Of a stretch of DNA of 64,000 nucleotides, positions 13,447 through 32,100 are shown piece after piece; the first letter of the stretch is position 1; every line of letters starts with the position of its first letter. The stretch is taken from the NCBI GenBank assembly GCA_963663405.2, contig CAXXSM010000149.1, positions 32,001 through 96,000 of the forward strand. The letters run 5' to 3'. The stretch comes from a bacterium. GTDB taxonomy: Bacteria; Hinthialibacterota; Hinthialibacteria; Hinthialibacterales; Hinthialibacteraceae. The notes below the pieces were generated by a model that searched no databases, had not been told where the DNA came from, and saw only the letters and a list, made by a program, of their open reading frames with translations. A program made the position numbers and the translations under genes.

Positions 13447-14064
13447 TTAATTGTCTATAGATTTTTGTTGTTTCTTTGCGAGTATCGAGACAATCCATTT
13501 TGACAGAATCCAAATCCATGCGTAGATCGTCAGTAATGGATCGATAAGATAATCCAACAAATTCTGTGATTCCAACAATTGTACATGATAAGAGACTATC
13601 GATAAAGAAAGGAATACCACTGCGCCGCGCCGATTCGAAAACCATCCCCAAATTGAAAACAAAAGTAAAGGAATCGCGAGATAGACCGGATGAAATCCAA
13701 GACGATACGGATCGTAGATTGTCCATCCTAAAGCCAATGGATAGTAAAACAAACCGAAAAGCGCCGCTCCATACATGATTACACGAAACGATCGGCTATC
13801 GAGGCTCTTCCACTGCCATAAGTGTTTTGAAATAAAACTGACAAGAAGGAGAGTGGTGAGCGTACTTGGATTTCCTATGTGACCAAAGAGATAATACGCT
13901 AGGGGAGCGCGAGAGAGAGGGATGAAGAGCAGCAGAAATAGTAACGTGGATAGAATCGCGCGCAGCCAGATAGGAGTGTTTCTTTCTTTGAAAAAGACCA
14001 CCGCTATGGCAGTGAGAAGAATATACATCTGCAGGAATGCGAACAAGTTTTGCAGTATTGTCAT
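13447..14064 (-). CDS. Integral membrane hypothetical protein
   Basis: Several TM segments with YPLALG..YDPY.LG and SQNLLDYLIDP motifs. The start at 14064 overlaps the upstream stop (ATGA). Confidence 0.7.
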   Translation of the reverse strand: MTILQNLFAFLQMYILLTAIAVVFFKERNTPIWLRAILSTLLFLLLFIPLSRAPLAYYLFGHIGNPSTLTTLLLVSFISKHLWQWKSLDSRSFRVIMYGAALFGLFYYPLALGWTIYDPYRLGFHPVYLAIPLLLFSIWGWFSNRRGAVVFLSLSIVSYHVQLLESQNLLDYLIDPLLTIYAWIWILSKWIVSILAKKQQKSIDN

Positions 14065-15224
14065 GGCAGAGCCTCCAGCCATGACAGATTGAAATGGATA
14101 TGTTTGATCTGCGTCCGTTTCCAGGTATAGACGACGTGAATTGTTCCATCATCCACCTGGATGATGTAAGGATAGGTATGTTTCATATACTCGGAGTTTT
14201 TTACAGGTTGGTGCGGTTCGAATTCGTAGAGGACATCCCATGTGTTTCCTTCATCGTGAGACTGGGCTAAAGACAGATTTTCTCGCCGCCGTTCCGAATT
14301 GTTAAAGACAAGCAGAAGGCGTCCATCCTGCAAACGGATCCCCGAAACGCCTTTATTTGGATTGGGAAGGCTTATATCCACAAGTGGAGACCAATGGAAT
14401 CCCGCATCCTCTGTCCGGCACATTTTGATATGTCGTGGAAAGCCTCCTTCATTCCGGAACAAAGCGATTGAGGTTTGCTCGTTGATGGGAACGCAGGAGG
14501 GTTGAAAGTATGATCGCCCCCATGACATACGGATTTTGTCAACGATTCCACCATGTTCATCCAAGATAAGATACTCGCCAAATTTCCCTACCATTTCGTG
14601 GTAAACTGGAACGCCGATCCATCCGTTTGTATAAAGCAGCGGGGTTCCTTTTACCAGCGTACTGATATTGAAGAATGGAGACGTAACGAGCCGTTTCGCT
14701 GTGGACCAGGTTTCTCCCCCATCCTGGGAACGTACGAAATTGATGGCGCATGTGGACCAACCGCTGATTGAAGTGGTGACGTAAAGCAAGCAGAGATTGT
14801 TTTGCTGATCGTGAAAAAGAAGGGGATTACCGATTTTTTTGATATAACGTTTGACATCGTTTTGAGTTTGCCGCCGGCCGATGAGTGGTTGGGATTCAGA
14901 CCATGCTTGTTGCGATGGATCGTATACCGATGTGTAAAGCGCGACGTCTAAAGCGCCTTCTTCAGTTCCACCATACCAGACGGCGCGGATGGATCCGTTC
15001 TTTGTCTGGGCGATGGACGAACTATGAACCCGTTGAGTTTTTGAATGTTTAGGAAGAAAGGTCTCCAAGTATAGCGGTTTTTCATCCGGCGCGGGATTGC
15101 GTGGTTCATTAATTATAATCCGCAATGGTTCCTGCGATTCATTCCAGGATAAAAGAAAAGGAAGAAAGGTCGTGAGGATGAGTAATGCGAATGCGATATG
15201 TTGATAGTGTCCTCGATTCAGCAT
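14061..15224 (-). CDS. BNR/Asp-box sialidase-like protein
   Basis: Asp boxes SQDGGETWS, TEDAGFHWS and SHDEGNTWD; WYGGTEEG; YPYIIQ..DG.IHVVYTW; N-terminal anchor. Confidence 0.85.
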   Translation of the reverse strand: MLNRGHYQHIAFALLILTTFLPFLLSWNESQEPLRIIINEPRNPAPDEKPLYLETFLPKHSKTQRVHSSSIAQTKNGSIRAVWYGGTEEGALDVALYTSVYDPSQQAWSESQPLIGRRQTQNDVKRYIKKIGNPLLFHDQQNNLCLLYVTTSISGWSTCAINFVRSQDGGETWSTAKRLVTSPFFNISTLVKGTPLLYTNGWIGVPVYHEMVGKFGEYLILDEHGGIVDKIRMSWGRSYFQPSCVPINEQTSIALFRNEGGFPRHIKMCRTEDAGFHWSPLVDISLPNPNKGVSGIRLQDGRLLLVFNNSERRRENLSLAQSHDEGNTWDVLYEFEPHQPVKNSEYMKHTYPYIIQVDDGTIHVVYTWKRTQIKHIHFNLSWLEALP

Positions 15225-15242
15225 AGTTATTGTTGAGACAAT

Positions 15243-15947
15243 CTAGGCGTTCAGCGCTTGGGTAGAATCTGTTTTATCTCGTACTTGAATATCATAGATC
15301 TCTGGATTGAAGGGACAGATCAACACCAACAGGAATAGAAAACTGCCGCAGAATTCCATCAATTCTCCGACCTTTGAATGATCGATCGAATAGACACATC
15401 CAGCGAATACGATCAAGCTGATCGCCTGCCTGAATGTGGGGATGGGGATTCCAAATGAATTAATGAAAGCTTTTATATTATCCCGTCTTTTGTATATAGG
15501 CGGAAGAATGAAAAAATAGACAACGATCAATACCGCGAGGATTTTGCCGAAAACAAGTTTGTTGATTTTTGTTCCTCCCACGACTAAATTGTGAAAGTTC
15601 AATTCCTCCTGGGCGTTATGATCGATGAAAAAATCGGGGCTTTGAATATTGAATAACCGCTGGCCCCAGGATATTTCTTCTCCCATACCGAATAAGAAAA
15701 CGCATCCCGCGAAAGTCAATGTCAACAAGAACCGTTTTGATCGAACCTTGCGTAAATAATAGACTCTCCAAAAGCAGAGGAATGATCCAGCAAGCAACGC
15801 GACCGCTGTCAGATATTCAATGCACCCATCTTCTTGGACGAATGATTCAAACACATTGGGCGATACGAACCTGAGAATGATACCTGTGATTGGAAAGAGT
15901 ACTATACAGGCAAGATAAGCAATTTCAAAAACAGTTCTTCGATACAT
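15243..15947 (-). CDS. Conserved multi-pass membrane protein
   Basis: Several TM helices with EDG..E and GEEISWGQR...HNAQEELNFHN motifs. Confidence 0.7.
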   Translation of the reverse strand: MYRRTVFEIAYLACIVLFPITGIILRFVSPNVFESFVQEDGCIEYLTAVALLAGSFLCFWRVYYLRKVRSKRFLLTLTFAGCVFLFGMGEEISWGQRLFNIQSPDFFIDHNAQEELNFHNLVVGGTKINKLVFGKILAVLIVVYFFILPPIYKRRDNIKAFINSFGIPIPTFRQAISLIVFAGCVYSIDHSKVGELMEFCGSFLFLLVLICPFNPEIYDIQVRDKTDSTQALNA

Positions 15948-16183
15948 TGAGTAAATGCGTTCTCCGAATAAATCCTTTTTTACTGTATTAGAAAAAGGAT
16001 ATCTAAAAAAGAGTGACCTGCGCGAATTATCAAATAGCGCATTATTATCTATTTTTTGTCCTATCAGGATATTCTAAATTGGATAATAATAAAGGTTTAT
16101 TCGGAAAGTATGCGGCTTGAGGATAGAAGGAAGGATATGAATCGTAAAACGCATCGTTTCGTTCTTAAGTATCGATCATCGTT

Positions 16184-17341
16184 TTGAATCTATTAAGGAA
16201 CACTCGTTCACCAAAATTAGATATGAGACTATTAAATCGAATGTTGAAATGGAGACCCGGCAAGACTCTCCTATTTAAATTCTGCGCGATTGCGCTGTCT
16301 GTTCTTTGTGTTTTTGCTGGATTGGAAATCGTGTTGCGTGGTATCGGATACCATCCTTCCTATGTGAATCCACTGCGCTCTTTTCACGAAAACGATCCCG
16401 TTTTGGGGTGGCGGGGGAAGAGAAATTTTACCGGGCGTTTCGTCAAACCTTGGTTTGATGTGGAAATTGCGCACGACGAAAACGGATTCAGAAAACAAGT
16501 TGTACAAAACGAACCCAGCGCTGACGCCAAACGGATTATTTTCTATGGCGACTCTTTTACCTGGGGGTGGGGTGTGGGACAAGGGAAAACAGTAACGGAC
16601 CGTTTACGCGTTCTCCTTCCCGCGTATAAAGTAATCAATCGGGGGATTAACGCGTCGGGAACTGTGATGCAGTATACGTTATTCAATCAAGAATTCTCAG
16701 CGTCACTTTCACCGGGGGATACTGTTATTCTGTTGTTTTTTTATAATGATTACAGCGATAACGTTGATGATTCCGGTGGGCGTCTATCCGCTCGGATCAA
16801 GGATGACGCGGTTGTTCTCGTTCCTCCCAGCCATGTTCTCTCTGAATCCCGATTGTCAACATATTCATATTTATTAAACTTCCTGCATTTTAAAATCAAT
16901 ACACTCAAATTGCATTATAAAACTCTCCGCGCATTGGACCGATCCTATGTGTTGGAACGGATTGGAGAATCCGATCCTTCTGTCGCGATCACAAAGCTTT
17001 TTCTGTCAAAATTCCAAGAAGACTGTCATCACCGCGAAGCGGAATTCCTACTGGCGTATATTCCGGGGCAGGCGGAGATGAATGAATTGAATGCCAATTT
17101 AGATGAGCAACTGCAAGCTGAAGAATCATTCCGGGCAGTGACTTTTAAGATCGCGAAGGACCTGAATCTGAAAACATTGGATTTTCTTCCTGCGTTTTTC
17201 GAATATAAGCGGCAGAATCCATCCACTCTCCTGACGTTCCAGATCGATCAGCATTGGAACGAACACGGACACGAACTCGCCGCGCAAGCGATTTGCCAGT
17301 ATCTGCGAGAAGAATGGAACTATCCGGGTCCATCCTTTTGA
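16184..17341 (+). CDS. Membrane-anchored SGNH/GDSL hydrolase-fold protein
   Basis: GDSFTWG (block I), NRGINASG, FFYND and DQHWNEHGH (DxH). The true start may be downstream. Confidence 0.85.
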   Translation: MNLLRNTRSPKLDMRLLNRMLKWRPGKTLLFKFCAIALSVLCVFAGLEIVLRGIGYHPSYVNPLRSFHENDPVLGWRGKRNFTGRFVKPWFDVEIAHDENGFRKQVVQNEPSADAKRIIFYGDSFTWGWGVGQGKTVTDRLRVLLPAYKVINRGINASGTVMQYTLFNQEFSASLSPGDTVILLFFYNDYSDNVDDSGGRLSARIKDDAVVLVPPSHVLSESRLSTYSYLLNFLHFKINTLKLHYKTLRALDRSYVLERIGESDPSVAITKLFLSKFQEDCHHREAEFLLAYIPGQAEMNELNANLDEQLQAEESFRAVTFKIAKDLNLKTLDFLPAFFEYKRQNPSTLLTFQIDQHWNEHGHELAAQAICQYLREEWNYPGPSF

Positions 17342-17457
17342 GTCCTTTCCCACGCTGTTCCAGCGATTGTATCCATAAAAAGAATTCATTCTATCCGTTC
17401 CCGGATGTTGAAGGGAATGGATGATTTCTTTACAATGGCGAACGGATTTTAATCTTT

Positions 17458-18636
17458 TTGAAAGGAATGTGTATCATGACACAGAAACGAGGATTGGCAC
17501 TACTCATTACCGTCGTCTTTCTCTGCGGGGTATGGGGAGAGACGCAAGCGGACGAATCCGGATTCAATGGTTTAAATGTTAACCTAGGGAACTTATACCG
17601 GCTATCGGACGCAAAAACCCGTTCTATCAGTCCAGAGAATTTCACAGGCGAAAAAGGAAAAGGCGGCATGGCGACGGAGGGAACCGGTGAGAGAGCGGCG
17701 CGTGATCTCGGCCGAGGGTGGAAGGTCTCACCATCTGTCAGCATTGAAGAGAAATCCACATTCGTTATGGCGGAGATTGATGGACCGGGGGCGATTCAAC
17801 ACATCTGGTTGACTCCCACCGGCAATTGGCGATTCTCCATCTTGCGGATTTATTGGGATGGTGAGGAGAATCCATCGGTGGAATGTCCTATCGGCGATTT
17901 TTTCGCGTGTGGATGGGGACAGTATGCGCAGGTCAATTCCCTGGCGGTCTGCGTTAATCCAGGGAGCGCTTTCAACTGCTATTGGTGTATGCCGTTTCGT
18001 CAAAAATGCAAGATCACACTTGAGAACATCGATGAGAACGAAATGCGGCTCTATTATCAGATTGATTACACACTCACAGATGTGCCGGATGACGCCGCGT
18101 ACTTCCATGCCCAGTTCCGCAGAGTCAATCCATTGCCCTATAAAGAGGTGTATACCATTGTGGATGGCATCAAAGGGAAGGGGCAGTATGTGGGAACGTA
18201 TATGTGCTGGGGTGTAAACAACCGTGGTTGGTGGGGGGAAGGCGAAATTAAATTTTATATGGACGGCGATACCGATTTCCCTACGATTTGCGGCACTGGG
18301 ACGGAGGATTATTTCTGTGGATCCTATAATTTTGAGAACAAAGTCGAAAAACGATACCAAGAATTCTCAACTCCTTACACTGGCCTCCCGCAGGTCATTC
18401 GCCCGGATGGGCGCTATGAATCGCAGCAGCGATTCGGCCTGTATCGTTGGCACATTACCGATCCGATCCGTTTTGAAGAGGATCTCCGCGTCACGATTCA
18501 AGCGCTGGGTTGGCGTTCCGGCGGCCGGTACCTGCCTTTACAAGACGATATCGCCTCAACCGCCTTCTGGTACCAAACCGAACCTCACGCCGCATTTCCT
18601 TCCTTGCCAGATAAAGATTATCTAGAAATTAAATAG
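17458..18636 (+). CDS. GH172 (DUF2961) glycoside hydrolase
   Basis: SISPENFTGEKGKGG, GPGAIQHIW, WWGEGE, GTGTEDYF, YRWHI.DPI.F. Confidence 0.92.
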   Translation: MKGMCIMTQKRGLALLITVVFLCGVWGETQADESGFNGLNVNLGNLYRLSDAKTRSISPENFTGEKGKGGMATEGTGERAARDLGRGWKVSPSVSIEEKSTFVMAEIDGPGAIQHIWLTPTGNWRFSILRIYWDGEENPSVECPIGDFFACGWGQYAQVNSLAVCVNPGSAFNCYWCMPFRQKCKITLENIDENEMRLYYQIDYTLTDVPDDAAYFHAQFRRVNPLPYKEVYTIVDGIKGKGQYVGTYMCWGVNNRGWWGEGEIKFYMDGDTDFPTICGTGTEDYFCGSYNFENKVEKRYQEFSTPYTGLPQVIRPDGRYESQQRFGLYRWHITDPIRFEEDLRVTIQALGWRSGGRYLPLQDDIASTAFWYQTEPHAAFPSLPDKDYLEIK

Positions 18637-19103: not shown

Positions 19104-19950
19104 CTAGTGTTCTCTATAAACCTGAAGCGGCGTCTTATATCCCAAGGCTTGGTGTAGACGCTCATTATTGTAGAACTGAAAATAATCCGTTAGTCCGCGC
19201 ACACAATCATTCACCGTTTCGTAACTTTTGATATAGACCTCCTCATATTTCACTGACCGCCATAACCGTTCGACGAAAATATTATCGAACACTCGGCCTC
19301 TTCCATCCATGCTGATGAGAGTCCTCTCTTTCTTCAAGCGACTCGTAAAATCCGTGCTTGTGAATTGAGAGCCTTGGTCACTGTTGAAGATCGTTGGCTT
19401 ATCAATTTCAAAAGCCATCTCCAACGCTTCGAGGCAAAAGTCAACCTCCATCGAAGTGGAGACTTTCCATGACACCACATAACGACTAAACCAGTCTAAG
19501 ATCGCCACCAGGTAAACAAATCCTTGGCGCATACGTATATAGGTGATATCGGTGCTCCACACGTGATTGGGTCTTTCGATTTTCACTCCCTTCAACAGGT
19601 ATGGATATTTCTTATGCTGAACATTTCCGAGGCTCAAACGAGGCTTCGGGTAGATCGTCTCCAAGCCCATCACTCGCATTAAACGACCGATTCGTTTCTT
19701 ATTCACAACCCGTCCTAGAGTTCTCAACCATTTCTGCATTTTCCGAATTCCGTAAAACGGTGTCCGGGTATATTGTTCATCAAGCAGGTTCATCAGCGCT
19801 ACATTTTCGGCTGATTCGCCCACGGGTTGATAATAAAATCCTGAACGAGACAACCCCAGCAATTCACATTGCCTCTTTATTGAAATCTCAGAATTAGTTA
19901 GTTCGATCCAACTTCGTCTTTTCTTAACTGAGCACGTTAGACTTTTTTTT
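19104..19950 (-). CDS. IS3 OrfB (DDE integrase core)
   Basis: WSTDITYI, FNSDQGSQF and DNIFVERLWRSVKYE. The frame is open upstream of 19862 to the A9 run (KRRSWIE...ISIKRQCELLGLSRS). Confidence 0.93.
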
Positions 19951-20223
19951 TACCCAATCAAGTTCGACTTTCATTTGCCCAATCTGGCGGTAAAGTTCCG
20001 ACGTCAGTTCTTCGGCTTCCGCTTGACTCTTTTCTTGCTTGCGTGAAAACAAGCCTGGGATTTCTTCCAACAGGCGCTTTTTCCACTGTCGAATCTGGCT
20101 CACATGAATTTTGTAATCGCTCGCTATCTGGGTTAAGGTCTTCTCTCCTTTGATTGCCTCCAGTGCCACTTTGCCTTTGAACGCTCCATCAAAATTTTTT
20201 CGCATTTTCATCATTTGGTTCAC
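19924..20223 (-). CDS. IS3 OrfA (HTH)
   Basis: FKGKVALEAIKGEKT...WKK...LYRQIGQMKVELDWVKKKS. Confidence 0.92.
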   Translation of the reverse strand: MNQMMKMRKNFDGAFKGKVALEAIKGEKTLTQIASDYKIHVSQIRQWKKRLLEEIPGLFSRKQEKSQAEAEELTSELYRQIGQMKVELDWVKKKSNVLS

Positions 20224-20551: not shown

Positions 20552-23464
20552 ATGTCAATTTCAGTTGGAACACTCCATCAATTCTATTCACGAACGATTT
20601 TTATTGTTGTCTCGCTGGCTCTTTTAAGCGCATTTATAGCCAACAACTCCATCGCGCAGAACATCAACGATTCCGCCCATTTCCCGGATCCGAATTTCCT
20701 AGCCGCTGTTGAGAGTTTCATGGGAGGAGATTTCACCGAGGCCCAAGCGGCGGCGAAGACAGGTGATTTTGGCTGCTCAAATCTATCTATCGGTGATTTG
20801 ACCGGAATAGAATATTTCACCGGTATAGGGGGACTCAACTGCGAGAAAAATCAATTAACCAGCCTGGATATCTCCAATAATACTGCTTTGAATTTTCTCA
20901 GATGCGGTGAAAATCAATTAACTAGCCTGGATGTCTCCCTCAACACCGCTTTGGATTATCTCTGGTGCAATAACAATCAATTAACCAGCCTGGATGTCTC
21001 CTACAACACCGCTTTAACTGAGTTCAGATTTTTTGGCAATGAATTAACCAGCCTGGATATCTCCAATAACACCGCTTTGACTACATTCAGCTGCGGTGAT
21101 AATCAATTAACCAGCCTGGATGTCTCCAACAACACCGCTTTGGCTATACTCTATTGCTATGAAAATCAATTAACCAGCCTGGATGTCTCCAACAACACCG
21201 CTTTGGCTATACTCTATTGCTATGAAAATCAATTAACCAGCCTGGATGTCTCCAACAACACCGCTTTGTCTGTGATCTACTGCTGGAATAATCAATTAAC
21301 CAGCCTGGATGTCTCCCACAACACCGCTTTGATTGAACTCGTGTGCTTTGCCAATCAATTAACCAGCCTGGATATCTCCCACAACACCGCTTTGACTACA
21401 TTCAGCTGCGATAATAATCAATTAACCAGCCTGGATGTCTCCCACAACACCGCTTTGACTATATTCAGCTGCGGTGATAATCAATTAACCAGCCTGGATT
21501 TCTCCAACAACACCGCTTTAGAAGAGTTCTACTGTAATTACAATCAATTAACCAGCCTGGATTTCTCCAACAACACCGCTTTGTATCATCTCCAATGCTA
21601 TGGGAATCAATTAACCAGTCTGGATGTCTCCAACAACACCGCTTTGGCTATACTCTATTGCTATGAAAATCAATTAACCAGCCTGGATGTCTCCAACAAC
21701 ACCGCTTTGTGGCATCTCCACTGCTATGAAAATCAATTAACCAGCCTGGATGTCTCCTACAACACGGCTTTAGAATGGCTCCGCTGCGATAACAATCAAT
21801 TGACAAACATTTCAAGTCTAGTCGTTAACACTGGTCTCGTATCAGGAGATAACGTAAATGTAAGTTACAACAATCTATCCTGCGATGATTGGGCTGATAT
21901 TCAGACATTGATAAGCCGTATTGGCGCTGGTTTTGTCTATTCTCCTCAAAATGGTTTTGATCCATTCTATTGCACCGTCAACATCAATACATCCGCCTAT
22001 TTCCCGGACGCGAATTTCCTCGACGCTGTTAGGAATTTCATGGGCCTCTCCTACCCAGAAGAACCTTTCACCGGCATCGATGCGGAGGCGAAGACGGGTA
22101 CTTTCGACTGCTCCGGTCTAAGTATCAGTGATATGACCGGAATAGAATATTTTACCGGCATAGAAAGACTCGATTGCTGGAACAATCAATTAACCAGCCT
22201 GGACGTCTCCAACAACACCGCTTTGACTGAACTCAATTGCGGTGTTAATCAATTAACCAGCCTGGATGTCTCCAGCAACACCGCTTTGGTTATCTTTTGG
22301 TGCAGTAATAATGAATTAACCAGCCTGGATGTCTCCAATAACACCGCTTTGACAAGACTCGACTGCGGTGTCAATAAATTGACCAGCCTGGATGTCTCCA
22401 GCAACACCGCTTTGACAAGCCTCCTTTGCGGTGTTAATCAATTAACCAGTCTGGATGTCTCTAACAACTCCGCTTTGAATCTCCTTTGGTGCGGTGGTAA
22501 TGAATTAACCAGCCTGGATGTCTCCAACAGCGCCGGTTTGACTGAGTTAAGATGTGATGACAATGAATTAACCAGCCTGGATGTCTCCAACAACACCGCT
22601 TTGACTATCCTCTATTGCGGCGCCAATCAATTAACCAGCCTGGATGTCTCCAACAACACCGCTTTGACTGGTCTCTATTGCGGTTGGTGTCAATTAACGG
22701 ACATTTCAAGTCTAGTCACCAACCTAGGTTTTGGAGCGGGAGATGACGTAGATGTAAGGTGGAACAATCTATCCTGCGATGATTGGGCGGCTATTCTTGT
22801 ACTGCAAAACCGGGGTGTTATTTTAGATTATTCCCCTCAGAATGGTATGAATCCATTTTATTGCGCGTCGATTGACACAAGTTACCTCGTCAATGGCAAT
22901 GGATTTGGCGGTCGATATTGGCCGGGGAGAATAAACGGCAGTTATTTTGACGCGCGGTTTATTCCAGCGACGGCTTTGGGCGGTGAAGAAACATATCCCG
23001 CGTGGTGCGCGGATATGCTTACCAAAATTCAACTGGGCGCGTGGTATAACAATGTTGGGATTTACACTTCTGAGACAGACGTCTGTTCCCTGGTTGGCAA
23101 TCCAGAGAATTTTAAATTTGTGAATTACTTGTTAGTCAATTATCGTTATGGCCTTTATGTAGGCGTTGACCAAAACGTAATCCAAGCGGTGGTCTGGAAA
23201 CTCTTATTCAATGGAAAAGCGCCAAAAATCGGGGGGAATGGGATCAGCAGTGGAGGATTCATTTCATGGGATGATTCGCTAGCCACATCTATTTATAATA
23301 CCGTGAGGACGACCCCGTCTTCCGATTTTCCCGATTATGAAAACAATTCATTTCTCCCCATCGCAATCATCATCGATACAGGTGATCAAGTGAATTTGCT
23401 GGAAATTCCGTATTGGATGTATCTTGAATTCATGGACTTGGGAATTGTTGGGGATTGTTCATGA
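20552..23464 (+). CDS. Secreted LRR protein (21-aa IRREKO-type repeats in two capped modules) with a putative C-terminal thioester domain
   Basis: AGGAG RBS and signal peptide. FPDxNF N-caps; 15 + 8 repeats of xxLxCxxNQLTSLDVSNNTAL; NNLSCDDW...PFYC C-caps; C-terminal AWCAD, IQAVVW and GDQVNLL. Confidence 0.9.
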   Translation: MSISVGTLHQFYSRTIFIVVSLALLSAFIANNSIAQNINDSAHFPDPNFLAAVESFMGGDFTEAQAAAKTGDFGCSNLSIGDLTGIEYFTGIGGLNCEKNQLTSLDISNNTALNFLRCGENQLTSLDVSLNTALDYLWCNNNQLTSLDVSYNTALTEFRFFGNELTSLDISNNTALTTFSCGDNQLTSLDVSNNTALAILYCYENQLTSLDVSNNTALAILYCYENQLTSLDVSNNTALSVIYCWNNQLTSLDVSHNTALIELVCFANQLTSLDISHNTALTTFSCDNNQLTSLDVSHNTALTIFSCGDNQLTSLDFSNNTALEEFYCNYNQLTSLDFSNNTALYHLQCYGNQLTSLDVSNNTALAILYCYENQLTSLDVSNNTALWHLHCYENQLTSLDVSYNTALEWLRCDNNQLTNISSLVVNTGLVSGDNVNVSYNNLSCDDWADIQTLISRIGAGFVYSPQNGFDPFYCTVNINTSAYFPDANFLDAVRNFMGLSYPEEPFTGIDAEAKTGTFDCSGLSISDMTGIEYFTGIERLDCWNNQLTSLDVSNNTALTELNCGVNQLTSLDVSSNTALVIFWCSNNELTSLDVSNNTALTRLDCGVNKLTSLDVSSNTALTSLLCGVNQLTSLDVSNNSALNLLWCGGNELTSLDVSNSAGLTELRCDDNELTSLDVSNNTALTILYCGANQLTSLDVSNNTALTGLYCGWCQLTDISSLVTNLGFGAGDDVDVRWNNLSCDDWAAILVLQNRGVILDYSPQNGMNPFYCASIDTSYLVNGNGFGGRYWPGRINGSYFDARFIPATALGGEETYPAWCADMLTKIQLGAWYNNVGIYTSETDVCSLVGNPENFKFVNYLLVNYRYGLYVGVDQNVIQAVVWKLLFNGKAPKIGGNGISSGGFISWDDSLATSIYNTVRTTPSSDFPDYENNSFLPIAIIIDTGDQVNLLEIPYWMYLEFMDLGIVGDCS
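20849..21793 (+). repeat. 15 x 63-bp coding tandem repeat (42 bp constant + 21 bp variable)
   Basis: Constant part AATCAATTAACCAGCCTGGATGTCTCCAACAACACCGCTTTG recurs at an exact 63-bp period. Confidence 0.97.
22184..22687 (+). repeat. 8 x 63-bp coding tandem repeat (second LRR block)
   Basis: Same constant unit and period as the first block. Confidence 0.96.
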
Positions 23465-23749: not shown

Positions 23750-25561
23750 ATGAAAACTCGCAAGCGGAATTCGAATCTGCGGAATATCGCCATCATCGCT
23801 CACGTCGATCATGGAAAAACAACATTGGTGGATGCGATGTTCAAACAAAGCGGTGTGTTCCGAGACAATCAGACTGTTAATGATCGCGTGATGGACAATA
23901 TGGATCTGGAACGCGAGCGGGGGATAACGATCTCCGCTAAAAATTGTTCCGTTTTTTGGAAAGGAGTGAAAATCAACATTCTTGACACTCCCGGTCACGC
24001 TGATTTCGGCGGGGAGGTGGAACGGGCGTTGATGATGGTCGATGGAGCGATTCTTCTCGTTGACGCTTCTGAAGGCCCCTTGCCTCAAACCCGCTTTGTG
24101 TTGCAGAAAGCGTTGAATCTGAATTTAAAAATAATTGTTGTCATTAATAAAATCGATCGTAAAGACGCCCGGCCGGCAGAAGTGTTGAATGAAATCTATG
24201 ATCTTTTCATCGATTTAGACGCCACCGATGAGCAGATTGAATTTCCCGTGTTTTACGCGATTGGGAAAGAGGGAACCGCGCAACGGTCTTTGGAAGAGGA
24301 TGGCCAGAATCTTCAGCCATTATTCGATGCCATTCTCGAAGAAATTCCTGCGCCGACCTATGAGCCATCCGAGCCGTTCCAGATGCTGGTCTCGGATTTG
24401 GATTATTCTGATTTCCTAGGCAGACTGGCCATTGGCCGGATCGCGCATGGCCGCGCCAGACGCAGCCAGGAATTGGTCTGCCTGGGGGAAAGTGGGATTC
24501 CACACCCGTTGCGTATTTCTAAATTGGAAGTGTACGAAGGCATTAAAATGAAAGAGGTGGATTCGGTCGAACCGGGTGATATCACAATACTGGCTGGAAT
24601 CGAAAATGTTCATATCGGCGATACCATCGCCGCGAAAGATACTCCCAAAGCCTTAAAACGAATTACAGTGGATGAACCGACCGTCTCCATGAAATTCGCG
24701 ATTAACACATCTCCTTTTGCCGGTAAAGAAGGCCGATACGTTCAATCCACTAAACTGCGCGAACGGTTGTTGAAAGAGACGCTCAGTAATGTTGCGCTGC
24801 AAGTGGAAGAGACGGATGACGCCAATATATTTCTGGTGAAAGGACGCGGCGAATTCCAAATGGTCATTCTGATCGAAACGCTTCGGCGGGAAGGATACGA
24901 GCTGAGCGCCGGGCGCCCGCATGTGATCTATAAACAGAATAATGGACAGATCCAAGAACCGATCGAGCATCTTTTTGTGGATTGTGACGAGATTTTCATC
25001 GGTATTGTTACAGAGAAACTTGCGGGACGGAAAGGACGTATGGTCAATCTGGTCAATCACGGATCGGGCCGGGCGCGTCTGGAATTTTCCATACCCTCGC
25101 GGGGACTGATCGGGTACCGGAATGAATTCTTAACCGACACGAAGGGGACGGGGATATTAAATTCCTATCTGGAGGGCTATGAAGACTACCGGGGCGATTT
25201 TCGTACCCGGTTGACAGGATCATTGGTAGCCGACCGGCAAGGGTTGGCGGTCGCTTATGCGCTTTATAATCTTGAGCCGCGGGGAACGCTTTTTATCACA
25301 CCGAATACGCCTGTATACGAAGGTATGATCGCTGGAGAACACAACCGGGATAATGATTTAAACGTCAATCCATGTAAAGAAAAGAAACTGACCAACATGC
25401 GGGCCGCTGGGAAAGACGACGCGGTTACACTTACACCAGTTACGCCAATGACCTTGGAAAAGGCGATTGAATTTATTAGAGAAGATGAGATGGTGGAAGT
25501 CACCCCGCGATCCATCCGCCTGCGGAAAACCATTCTTCCAGCGAATCAACGCAAAGGGTAA
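23750..25561 (+). CDS. typA: Translational GTPase TypA/BipA
   Basis: [62 protein letters not shown]. Confidence 0.98.
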
Positions 25562-25563
25562 TT

Positions 25564-27237
25564 CTATTGATCCAGGATTTTCTTCTCATCGGGGAGGCGG
25601 GGGCCTGCGTGCCCGTCGGGAATCTGGGAAAGTGAAATCGAATTTAAATTCGAGGATGCGCCGATCTCAAAGCAATAGGCCCACCAATTCAGAGCCGCGT
25701 TCATAACTTGATCACAATCATAATAACGATTGCGTCCAAACATCGTTCCATCACTATAGATGTCGTATGCCCAAGAGTTTGGATCGTATGTGATAAAATA
25801 CTCTCCATCTTCCGACCAGCCTTTTACAATTAAAAAGTGTCCGCTGTCGTAATTATAAAAGCGGTCGAAATAAGGTTGGCGGCTGTAGTCGATCCATCTC
25901 ATCTCCATGCAAAGCAATACAATGTTTCCTCGTTCAAGAATTTGATCGATATCCGTCCGGGACGAGACAGAATGGATTACGAAGGGAGTATTATATTTTT
26001 TTAAAGCTTTTTGGATATCGGATGTATACCACCAGCCGTTGTTACGGCGGTTGACATCCCGGATCGTATCGACGGGGATATCTTGATTTGAATACCATTT
26101 GATGGCCATATGAGTCGATGTTGGCCCGCAGTTGTTGTCCGACGCTGGGCCTGTGCCCATTTGGGTTTGGTACCACTCATAAGGCCGGGAATTATGTTCT
26201 GAAGCGACCGGATTGACCGTAAGCAGCATCTCTCCGAAAACATCGCCGAATTGCGCGAAAATCCATGAATTTCCACTATTCAATCCACAGACGGTTCCAG
26301 AACCGTCAACCGTGGCGGTCTGGTTGTTACCGGAACTCCATACATAATTGAGATCTTGAATGGTGTTTTCTGAAGGATCGTACGCTACGCCTGTTAAGAC
26401 CGCTCTTTCATCGATGTCTACTTCCAGCCGTGAGGGATCGATCTCGATTTGCTCGATGAGTAAGGGGCTGGGTGTGTTTGTGGGTATTTCCGTAGGAACA
26501 GGTGTGGATGTTTGCGTAGGTTCTGGGGTGGGTGTTGTTGTGGGTATCTCCGTAGGAACAAGTGTGGATGTTGGTGTTGGCTCTGGAGTGGATGTTGGAT
26601 TTTCCTCCAGTGGAGTGAGGCTCACAATCTCTGGATCGTCCACATCACCGTCGAGAAATTCTGTATGATAATACCGTTCCGGATCAAGCAGGTAATATTC
26701 GAAATTGTCAAGATAGACCGTTAATGGTTCTGTATCGCTCGTGTTGATAACTTGAATCAACGGTTGGAAACCGGTCGATGGAGGGATAAAAATATCCGCA
26801 AGGCGCCGGTATTGATTTTCAAAATACGCTTCTCGCGCAGGGGTGAGAGTCGATACGAAACTATTTTCCCCTGCGTCAATTGTCGCGAGGGTGATCGATG
26901 CGTGCGGCGCGTCCGCCCGGACAGAGCAGCGGATCAAGGCCATATTCTCCGTCGTTACAACGGGGCCGAATATCATGACGCCTTCGCCGGGATCGGCCTC
27001 AATGATTAATCCCCATCCATCTGTCGCGCCTTGAAATGTGTTATACTTTGGAAGGACTCCAAGAGAAATTGCTGGTTCCGGGTAGGCGCCAAATCCGGCG
27101 CCCATAAAAGAGACGCCTATTTCGTCCAATGAATCGCCGGAAAAATCAAATTGGACGTGTTCTTCTCCCATGCTTAACGGTACATAGAACAAAGAAATCA
27201 ATACGGCAAGTATGAATCGAACAGCGTCTTTCATCAA
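25564..27237 (-). CDS. Secreted protein: shared N-terminal domain, Pro/Thr linker, Big_2 Ig-like domain, C39-like cysteine peptidase
   Basis: Signal peptide; PTPEPT linker; WSSGN..TATVD.SG.V.G; catalytic-type NCGPTS...GHF.IVKG...YDP. Confidence 0.8.
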   Translation of the reverse strand: MMKDAVRFILAVLISLFYVPLSMGEEHVQFDFSGDSLDEIGVSFMGAGFGAYPEPAISLGVLPKYNTFQGATDGWGLIIEADPGEGVMIFGPVVTTENMALIRCSVRADAPHASITLATIDAGENSFVSTLTPAREAYFENQYRRLADIFIPPSTGFQPLIQVINTSDTEPLTVYLDNFEYYLLDPERYYHTEFLDGDVDDPEIVSLTPLEENPTSTPEPTPTSTLVPTEIPTTTPTPEPTQTSTPVPTEIPTNTPSPLLIEQIEIDPSRLEVDIDERAVLTGVAYDPSENTIQDLNYVWSSGNNQTATVDGSGTVCGLNSGNSWIFAQFGDVFGEMLLTVNPVASEHNSRPYEWYQTQMGTGPASDNNCGPTSTHMAIKWYSNQDIPVDTIRDVNRRNNGWWYTSDIQKALKKYNTPFVIHSVSSRTDIDQILERGNIVLLCMEMRWIDYSRQPYFDRFYNYDSGHFLIVKGWSEDGEYFITYDPNSWAYDIYSDGTMFGRNRYYDCDQVMNAALNWWAYCFEIGASSNLNSISLSQIPDGHAGPRLPDEKKILDQ

Positions 27238-31966: not shown

Positions 31967-32100
31967 GCCGGTCTTATCTCTTCTATCTGCCGCTAGACCG
32001 AAAATGGTCTCCATAAATCGAAGCGCCGCTATTTTACTTTCTAACGTTTCTATAATCATTCATATTCTGTTATATACGCTTTTGGAAAAGAGAGAATTCG

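Follow-up and report, generated by a model that had tools for sequence, protein, structure and literature searches.

How can the repeat units of a bacterial gene stay nearly identical in their DNA, synonymous sites included, and at the same time differ radically at a handful of codons? The question is raised by a gene for a leucine-rich repeat (LRR) protein on contig CAXXSM010000149.1 (C149 below) of assembly GCA_963663405.2, a metagenome-assembled genome of the Hinthialibacteraceae (8.44 Mb in 170 contigs, 82% complete). The stretch analysed, referred to as the window, is 64,000 nucleotides long (positions 32,001 to 96,000 of the contig), and coordinates are counted from its first letter unless another contig is named. 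The gene occupies 20552..23464 on the + strand, a single open reading frame (ORF) of 970 amino acids (aa) with the stop codon counted in, and codes in order for a signal-like segment, an N-terminal cap, 15 LRRs, a C-terminal cap, a second N-terminal cap, eight LRRs, a second C-terminal cap, and a 194-aa C-terminal domain. A preliminary description, made from the letters alone, saw 23 units in which a near-invariant 42-bp arm alternates with a radically variable 21-bp cassette encoding xxLxCxx, and proposed that recombination through the arms shuffles binding cassettes to give a diversifying receptor similar to the lamprey VLRs. The reading that we favour, and regard as probable, is that the gene codes for a secreted binding protein joining LRRs to a thioester domain (TED) fold, and that its family evolves by birth and exchange of whole units together with diversifying selection at five codons per unit.

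Variation among the repeat units

Tandem Repeats Finder reports two period-63 arrays, at 20833-21771 (14.9 copies) and 22184-22684 (8.0 copies), and the register of xxLxCxx followed by NQLTSLDVSNNTAL resolves these into 15 units from 20828 and eight from 22163, confirming the count of 23. Array 1 (20828..21772) is delimited by Tandem Repeats Finder, the register, column diversity, and homology to structure 3bz5, and array 2 (22163..22666) by Tandem Repeats Finder, the register, and synonymous divergence (dS) of the arms; the two share an arm consensus, and both are on the + strand, as are all other parts of the gene.

When the 23 units are compared column by column, diversity averages 0.610 for the five x codons; the remaining codons average 0.085. 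The third positions of the 14 arm codons have a diversity of 0.089, and the reported near-invariance of the 42 bp thus extends to synonymous sites. The three arm leucines are each encoded by a codon that is set by position (TTA in 22/23 units, CTG in 23/23, and TTG in 20/23), whereas the 11 other ORFs in the window use all six leucine codons, with TTA at 15%, CTG at 18%, and TTG at 31%. Because the arm codons are fixed per position and not per amino acid, they point to descent or homogenisation and not to codon bias.

The variability ascribed to the whole 21-bp cassette belongs to its x codons, in which all 15 nucleotide positions vary (diversity 0.31 to 0.76), and not to the leucine and cysteine codons that lie between them. 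The in-cassette leucine (L3) is CTC in 14/16 cases and the cysteine (C5) is TGC in 20/22. Since these codons are homogeneous, change is confined to the x codons, and whole units must be of recent shared ancestry. The non-synonymous excess predicted across units is present: the proportion of non-synonymous differences (pN) is 0.62 at the x codons versus a synonymous proportion (pS) of 0.16 at the other 16 codons, a ratio of 3.9 (range 2.9-6.0, bootstrap over units), or 7.4 with Jukes-Cantor correction, and a lower bound only, the x codons being saturated. The sole unsaturated comparison is among the closest units, a trio with TTFSC-like cassettes, which differ by five non-synonymous changes and one synonymous change. 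Change at the x codons has thus far outpaced that at synonymous sites, and their products are rich in aromatic residues and histidine as originally noted, with W, Y, F, and H together making up 23% of 115 x residues versus 12.5% of residues in the 11 other window ORFs.

Two further observations concern how cassettes are related to one another. The recurring AILYCYE cassettes at 21143, 21206, and 21647 are indeed copies, with the units identical across all 63 nucleotides; they also account for all three of the exact repeats of at least 55 bp in the array (105, 91, and 90 bp). The apparent mosaics TTFSCGD, TTFSCDN, and TIFSCGD are related by single-nucleotide steps (ACA>ATA, GGT>GAT, and GAT>AAT), so that point mutation suffices to explain them and mosaicism is not needed.

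Concerted evolution within and between loci

The window gene is one member of a large family in its own genome. The 42-base arm has 56 occurrences there at three or fewer mismatches, as against none for a reversed control. A unit profile (nhmmer) finds 213 copies on 19 contigs, and a census by protein motif counts 248 units in 32 ORFs, with the same arm present in at least seven unlinked paralogues of this family of at least 32 genes. A search of 60 other genomes, from members of the same family out to more distant members of the domain, did not find the arm. Arm third-position diversity is low in a group of young arrays, of which the window array is the lowest (0.089, followed by contigs C138 at 0.10, C92 at 0.16, and C27 at 0.22), and reaches 0.5-0.7 in the genome's old arrays. 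At the x codons, diversity spans 0.47-0.72, whether arrays are old or young.

The caps and flanks provide the yardstick for the arms. The duplication of the entire cap-LRR-cap module proposed earlier holds up: the module 1 N-terminal cap (20657..20827) and the module 2 N-terminal cap (21974..22162), both placed by alignment with each other, are identical at 39/56 aligned residues with a dS of 0.33 (10.0 synonymous differences over 37.2 sites), and the C-terminal caps are identical at 44/76 residues with a dS of 0.78 (24.2 synonymous differences over 50.2 sites). The first of these C-terminal caps (21773..21973) consists of a degenerate 16th unit followed by ...NNLSCDDW...PFYC, and the second (22667..22864), aligned with it, is a cap that also occurs in paralogues. 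The dS of the arms is 0.142 between modules, and 0.143 and 0.142 within them. Between genes, arms and caps or flanks stand even further apart. The flanks of the window gene and C138 have a pS of 0.78-0.83, which is saturated, and their arms a dS of 0.15; for C92 the values are a flank pS of 0.68-0.81 and an arm dS of 0.24, and for C27 a flank dS of 0.59-0.69 and an arm dS of 0.27. With the old paralogue on C111 the contrast between arm and flank is absent (flank dS 1.27-1.30, arm dS 1.57). The mean arm distance between genes approximates the mean of the values within genes (for C149 and C138, 0.082 vs 0.072 and 0.087), such that the units of at least seven loci act as one pool. The arms evolve in concert both within and between loci.

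Whole units have been copied, as illustrated by three copies of AILYCYE in the window gene, three of TSLECWN in C138, and two of EYLWCYE in C55. Nonetheless 238/248 cassettes are distinct in DNA, and those that repeat do so within one gene (C149, C138, and C55) or in a pair of genes on C47 and C99. None of the 23 window cassettes has a copy at any other locus of the genome, the nearest differing at 3-7 of 21 nucleotides.

Several family members have features of their own. On C138 (G000:C138:8408-10194, locus L001), two small and complete signal-cap-LRR-cap genes lie in tandem, and the second of these contains three exact tandem copies of TSLECWN plus arm, indicating a very recent unit duplication. 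At G000:C82:16382-17342, a family LRR gene is split into two overlapping frames at ∼16845-16858, through either a frameshift that made it a pseudogene or a mistake in the assembly. The LRR genes on C47 and C99 (965- and 967-aa ORFs) have five identical cassettes and one near-identical cassette at the same positions, reflecting either a recent whole-gene duplication or a contig that is duplicated in the bin.

Beyond this genome, LRR arrays of relatives have diverged arms with a third-position diversity of ∼0.6, and no orthologue was found in 40 relatives, which gave only weak cap or TED-like matches (best E 2.9e-10). A search of genome and metagenome contig collections with the C-terminal domain returned no related locus. 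An exact 24-mer of the arm is present in LRR genes on two metagenome contigs (loci L116 and L117) that have no other blastn match to the window genome (E 1e-10), and this may reflect shared codon choice for NQLTSLDVS or an old transfer. The window protein is alone in its 90%-identity cluster in a 15-billion-protein collection, and three other family proteins are likewise alone or almost alone in theirs.

Repeat class and C-terminal domain of the predicted protein

By sequence, the repeats belong to the known 21-residue Cys-ladder class of LRR, that of Internalin-J (InlJ) and 'IRREKO' subtype 2; the 21-residue Cys-ladder repeats of Listeria monocytogenes Internalin-J were reportedly described by Bublitz et al. 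in 2008. The unit L-xx-L-x-C-xx-N-Q-L-T-S-L-D-V-S-N-N-T-A fits LxxLxCxxNxLxxLDLxxNxx, with N8 and D14 each conserved in 23/23 units, the cysteine in 22/23, and V, I, or F at position 15. In LRR structures, positions 2, 3, 5, 7, and 8 of the LxxLxLxxN core line the concave sheet. The variable residues of the units are exactly x2, x3, x5, x7, and x8 of that core, and homology to 3bz5 together with this general knowledge predicts that all five are on the concave face, in agreement with the preliminary description; a role in ligand binding would follow naturally. The best solved relative is Internalin-J itself (3bz5_A, E 5.3e-60, residues 197-423 vs 129-357), and Pfam reports LRR_4 (E 1.2e-46) in 12 stretches of the 970 aa. 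The Pfam scan contains no NACHT or NB-ARC match, all matches being LRR-type apart from spurious beta-propeller ones. The published consensus of IRREKO subtype 2 is LxxLxCxxNxLxxLDLxx(N/L/x)xx, in which position 16 is often V or I (PMC2946307). The class is large, with 7,876/8,000 scored candidates at E <= 1e-20, and more than 170,000 homologues are recorded in MGnify (PMC9210967).

The window protein shares with Internalin-J and the IRREKO proteins a 21-residue unit of LxxLxCxxNxLxxLD(V/I)xxNxx with cysteine at core position 6. It differs in that its units are far more uniform in DNA, in having two tandem cap-LRR-cap modules, and in lacking LPXTG and MucBP, with a C-terminus that instead has the predicted TED fold described below. 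Among the 120 best database relatives, 119 carry at least eight chained units, and ∼27 of these 119 combine a scaffold identity of at least ∼0.80 with an x identity of 0.13-0.44. The window protein is 14th of 119 (scaffold 0.86, x 0.13; median scaffold 0.67). These are protein-level values, and the 120 relatives were ranked by similarity to the window protein, biasing the set to consensus-like arrays; with that in mind, the window gene probably exemplifies a more widespread regime in which a constant scaffold presents a variable face. Proteins P0155, P0211, and P0182 from other metagenomes have several cap-LRR-cap modules, with a near-constant NQLT(S/A)LDVSKNTAL scaffold and variable xxLxCxx. 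Their C-termini resemble what we take to be Bacteroidota secretion tails.

A feature that is new here is the C-terminal domain (22880..23461, 194 aa), which in a structural model has the TED fold and carries candidates for the associated Cys and Gln motifs. A language-model look-up led to clusters in which 11% of members have PF08341, the Pfam TED. A profile search of 1.84 billion representatives gives 198 matches at E <= 1e-3, and 14/60 scanned profile relatives match Pfam TED at E <= 0.01; in three of ten relatives that were re-scanned, the TED match overlaps the aligned region. The placement of the domain rests on an AlphaFold2 model and its fold matches. A first model built from 14 sequences was set aside with a pLDDT of 53, and a 56-sequence alignment yielded a model with a pLDDT of 89.4 and a pTM of 0.88. 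With this model, the sole Foldseek matches at E <= 0.001 are chains of 5a0g, a Clostridium perfringens thioester domain (E 4.4e-4). VIA-align against 48,161 PDB representatives places TEDs at all of ranks 1-8 (2xi9, 5a0g, 5a0l, 5dcq, 6fwv, 5a0n, 6fwy, and 6fx6; Z 9.3-7.0), with rank 9 at a Z of 3.2.

Residues C43, Q102, W106, and Q170 of the domain are invariant in 14 aligned paralogues and at least 90% conserved in 56 sequences. They lie in the motifs AWCAD (C43), IQAVVW (Q102 and W106; 23180-23197), and DQVNLLE (Q170), and C43 and Q170 correspond to the candidate thioester residues Cys819 (23006-23008) and Gln946 (23387-23389), between which a thioester may form. The spacing from Cys to Gln is 127 residues here, similar to the 129-153 in the TED structures quoted in PMC4450167. 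The window protein is like TED adhesins such as SfbI, Cpa, CpTIE, and the TIE proteins in its fold, in the sequence and distances in which the candidate Cys motif, QxxPhiW helix, and Gln strand follow one another, and in being a predicted secreted protein with an extra binding or stalk part (PMC4450167). According to the same source, Gram-positive LPXTG proteins 'almost always' have their TED at the N-terminus, whereas the window TED is at the extreme C-terminus behind LRRs, without LPXTG, and in an uncultured lineage.

The TED-fold domain has 33 matches in its own genome, at least 15 of them long, behind varied N-terminal parts; the module is found elsewhere in this genome on contigs C27, C55, C111, C110, C132, C36, C6, C4, C87, C130, C21, and C85. 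The N-terminal parts are very different (262 to 2,904 aa). Another LRR-TED protein, P0011 (640 aa), is encoded on a different metagenome contig. With no more than weak matches in the 40 relatives, the distribution resembles that of a putative covalent adhesin group which has expanded in this lineage alone.

The window gene product is likely to be secreted. A Sec signal peptide is predicted by eye from the translation (∼aa 1-35, 20552..20656), with the hydrophobic segment IFIVVSLALLSAFIA followed by SIA/QN, and the paralogues on C138 and C82 have the same protein start. Directly upstream is an IS3-family insertion sequence (19104-20223, - strand) with the usual two-frame arrangement, in which the first ORF (19924-20223, - strand) has HTH_28/HTH_Tnp_1 matches and the second (19104-19862, - strand) rve/HTH_21. 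Among the products of the neighbouring genes at 14061-18636 and 25564-27237 are a sialidase-like protein (BNR_2), a hydrolase of the SGNH/GDSL type, a DUF2961 protein, and a secreted Big_2 plus Peptidase_C39-like protein, which suggests a glycan-degrading or surface-acting setting; TypA/BipA is encoded at 23750-25561.

Competing explanations and known systems

In the process that we consider probable, whole 63-bp units would be gained by duplication, lost, and traded, both inside an array and from one unlinked paralogue to another, with the 42-bp arms mediating unequal crossing-over or ectopic conversion. This turnover would keep the arms and structural codons near-identical, and strong diversifying selection would drive amino acid replacement at the five codons per unit that are predicted to be solvent exposed. 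In the mature protein, the concave faces of the LRRs would choose the target, and the TED, if a thioester forms between Cys819 and Gln946, would fix the protein to it covalently. We infer that the driver is selection and not targeted mutagenesis.

Four other explanations have to be weighed. The shuffling model of the preliminary description, in its strict form, has old 21-bp cassettes that are kept, with gene conversion restricted to the arms homogenising the scaffold and recombination in the arms reordering the cassettes. It captures the homogenisation, which is evident from arm dS against cap and flank dS both within and between loci; one cassette does recur non-adjacently (21647), and heterologous cassettes could plausibly halt the extension of heteroduplex. 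A process confined to the arms would nonetheless leave L3 and C5 as diverged as the flanks, and these codons are as homogeneous as the arms, in the window gene and also in C138, C92, and C27, which likewise have CTC and TGC at L3 and C5 despite diverged flanks. The supposed mosaics reduce to single-base steps, and the near-universal distinctness of cassettes, with none common to the window and other loci, is not what shuffling of old cassettes would leave. The homogenised scaffold thus survives from that model, the shuffling of old cassettes does not, and the model as a whole is unlikely. The array could instead be a chimeric assembly path through near-identical repeats of different paralogues, in which case the number and order of its units, and even their assignment to this locus, would not be real. 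This view draws on the low depth (∼4-5) of the read source, the metagenomic origin of the genome, 42-bp arms that are identical across loci, and the breaking of Logan k=31 contigs inside the array, in the arms. However, only the three exact repeats noted above reach 55 bp, the longest at 105 bp, and paired reads or a large k can order such an array. The one public run that holds the stretch (share 0.92, as Logan contigs; no RNA holder is listed) supplies seven independent pieces that match with 0 differences. They extend over the junctions, with 21736-22285 linking module 1 to module 2 and 22638-22963 linking array 2 to the TED, and over several pairs of units, and none spans an array. The contrast between arms and x codons is in any case independent of unit order, and we consider an artefact quite improbable.

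Programmed diversification, by retrohoming of a diversity-generating retroelement (DGR), deaminase hypermutation, or copying from silent donors in the manner of VLRs or pilins, would account for an x-codon excess that is large (at least 3.9 to 7.4 times background synonymous change) and sharply bounded by codons. DGRs have a reverse transcriptase and a template repeat near the variable repeat, and change only positions that are adenines in the template. The variation at all 15 x-codon positions is unlike such an adenine-only pattern, the genome's only two RVT_1 matches are on C77 and C100, contigs without units, and no copy of a template was found. No bare or silent cassette store was found among the 213 nhmmer and 248 motif units of this 82% complete genome, every unit found being in a signal-cap-LRR-cap gene, a result that, at this level of completeness, stops short of proof against the silent cassettes suggested earlier; the window gene is also intact. 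We consider programmed diversification very unlikely. Least plausible of all is a constraint on codons, mRNA, or DNA that keeps old arms identical without recombination. As such a constraint would have it, even the old arrays have more CTC at L3 and more TGC at C5 than the genome's codon usage would give, but arrays of the same family reach an arm third-position diversity of 0.5-0.7 and those of relatives ∼0.6, and arms so diverged in other arrays show that there is no general nucleotide constraint. The three arm leucines moreover use three different fixed codons, and none of the 60 other genomes searched yielded the 42-mer.

The secreted LRR-TED reading, with unit exchange and diversifying selection, also has evidence that tells against it. 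The ratio of x-codon change to background dS would fit a locally raised mutation rate as well as selection. There may be some position-specific codon preference at L3 and C5, since the old arrays, too, most often have CTC and TGC there (31/88 Leu and 52/91 Cys, against genome usages of 13% and 34%). The cap dS values are noisy because the caps have only 56 and 76 codons, the number of units and their order depend on the original metagenome assembly, and ongoing shuffling of units is deduced from one genome. For the TED, Pfam gives no match to the window domain at E <= 1 and none to 14 paralogues at E <= 10, and a sequence profile search of PDB with the domain finds nothing (best E 0.38). The re-scanned relatives fall below the Pfam TED cut-off (18.2-19.3 bits vs 22), making the link to Pfam transitive only, and the Foldseek TM to 5a0g is low, at 0.43-0.47. 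The motifs depart from those described in PMC4450167, with Trp for Y/F/L in the first motif, Ile for Thr, and a loosely fitting Gln motif (DQVNL).

Among known systems, the best reading is that the window family matches the regime of highly internally conserved (HIC) repeats in fungal NLRs and not VLR-type assembly. Three sources on fungal NLR/HET proteins with HIC repeats (the Podospora anserina NWD/HNWD WD40 repeats, ANK, and TPR; PMC1805685, PMC4986451, and bioRxiv 10.1101/2020.01.06.895854) describe units that are near-identical in DNA within and between unlinked members while the rest of the genes have diverged, with a few hypervariable codons per repeat on the binding surface. They explain this by concerted evolution with exchange of units together with positive diversifying selection; for the P. 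anserina WD40 repeats, concerted evolution is said to act 'both within and between loci' (Paoletti et al., PMC1805685), on the strength of the same signature as the pooled units of the window family show. There are also differences. The window repeat is an LRR and not WD40, ANK, or TPR, and the same sources state that prokaryotic NLRs 'do not display LRR repeats' and note the HIC regime for WD and TPR repeats of bacterial NLRs. Repeat-number polymorphism is documented for Podospora, whereas the window is known from one genome. The window protein is adhesin-like, predicted to be secreted, and without NACHT or NB-ARC, and is not an NLR; its host is a bacterium, so that repeat-induced point mutation (RIP) cannot contribute.

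With lamprey VLRs the window protein shares an LRR scaffold with diversity concentrated on the predicted concave face, and its sequence weakly matches VLR chains (E 6e-5 to 5e-4). In the lamprey, the germline gene is incomplete, and somatic assembly completes it with donor cassettes from its flanks. The window gene, in contrast, is a complete ORF, and no donor cassettes were found in the assembled 8.44 Mb, so the proposed VLR-likeness does not extend to mechanism. The mosquito LRIM1/APL1C-TEP1 system offers an analogy only: LRR proteins there act with a thioester protein that labels targets covalently, but these are separate proteins of eukaryotic immunity, and the thioester protein is of the unrelated alpha-2-macroglobulin type. 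In the literature searched, supplementary tables (e.g., the IRREKO list, PMC2946307) aside, neither bacterial HIC-like LRR arrays nor LRR-TED fusions are described, which is not proof of novelty.

Few of the adhesive domains predicted in bacteria are as common as those of InlJ-type LRR proteins, for most of which no ligand has been identified. The window family provides a case at the level of DNA, in which LRR arrays evolve in concert across unlinked genes while five codons of the predicted concave face change several-fold faster than synonymous sites, and suggests in concrete terms how new binding specificities may arise in bacteria. The HIC-repeat regime of fungal NLRs is thereby extended to bacterial LRR proteins that are predicted to be secreted. 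The fusion of LRRs to a predicted thioester-adhesin fold suggests that recognition could be coupled to covalent capture, and it places the TED fold, presented as a Gram-positive feature in PMC4450167, in an uncultured lineage and a new architecture. A more far-reaching reading, which we offer tentatively and with some doubt, is that the genome holds a germline repertoire of LRR-guided covalent adhesins, in which ∼250 interchangeable units are reshuffled across more than 30 loci through the 42-bp arms, five codons per unit are rewritten by selection or by a local mutator, and some arrays carry a thioester warhead. If true, bacteria would have, outside the cell, an equivalent of HIC-NLR diversification in fungi and of insect recognition by LRR plus thioester proteins, and many InlJ-type LRR proteins from other bacteria may evolve under the same regime.

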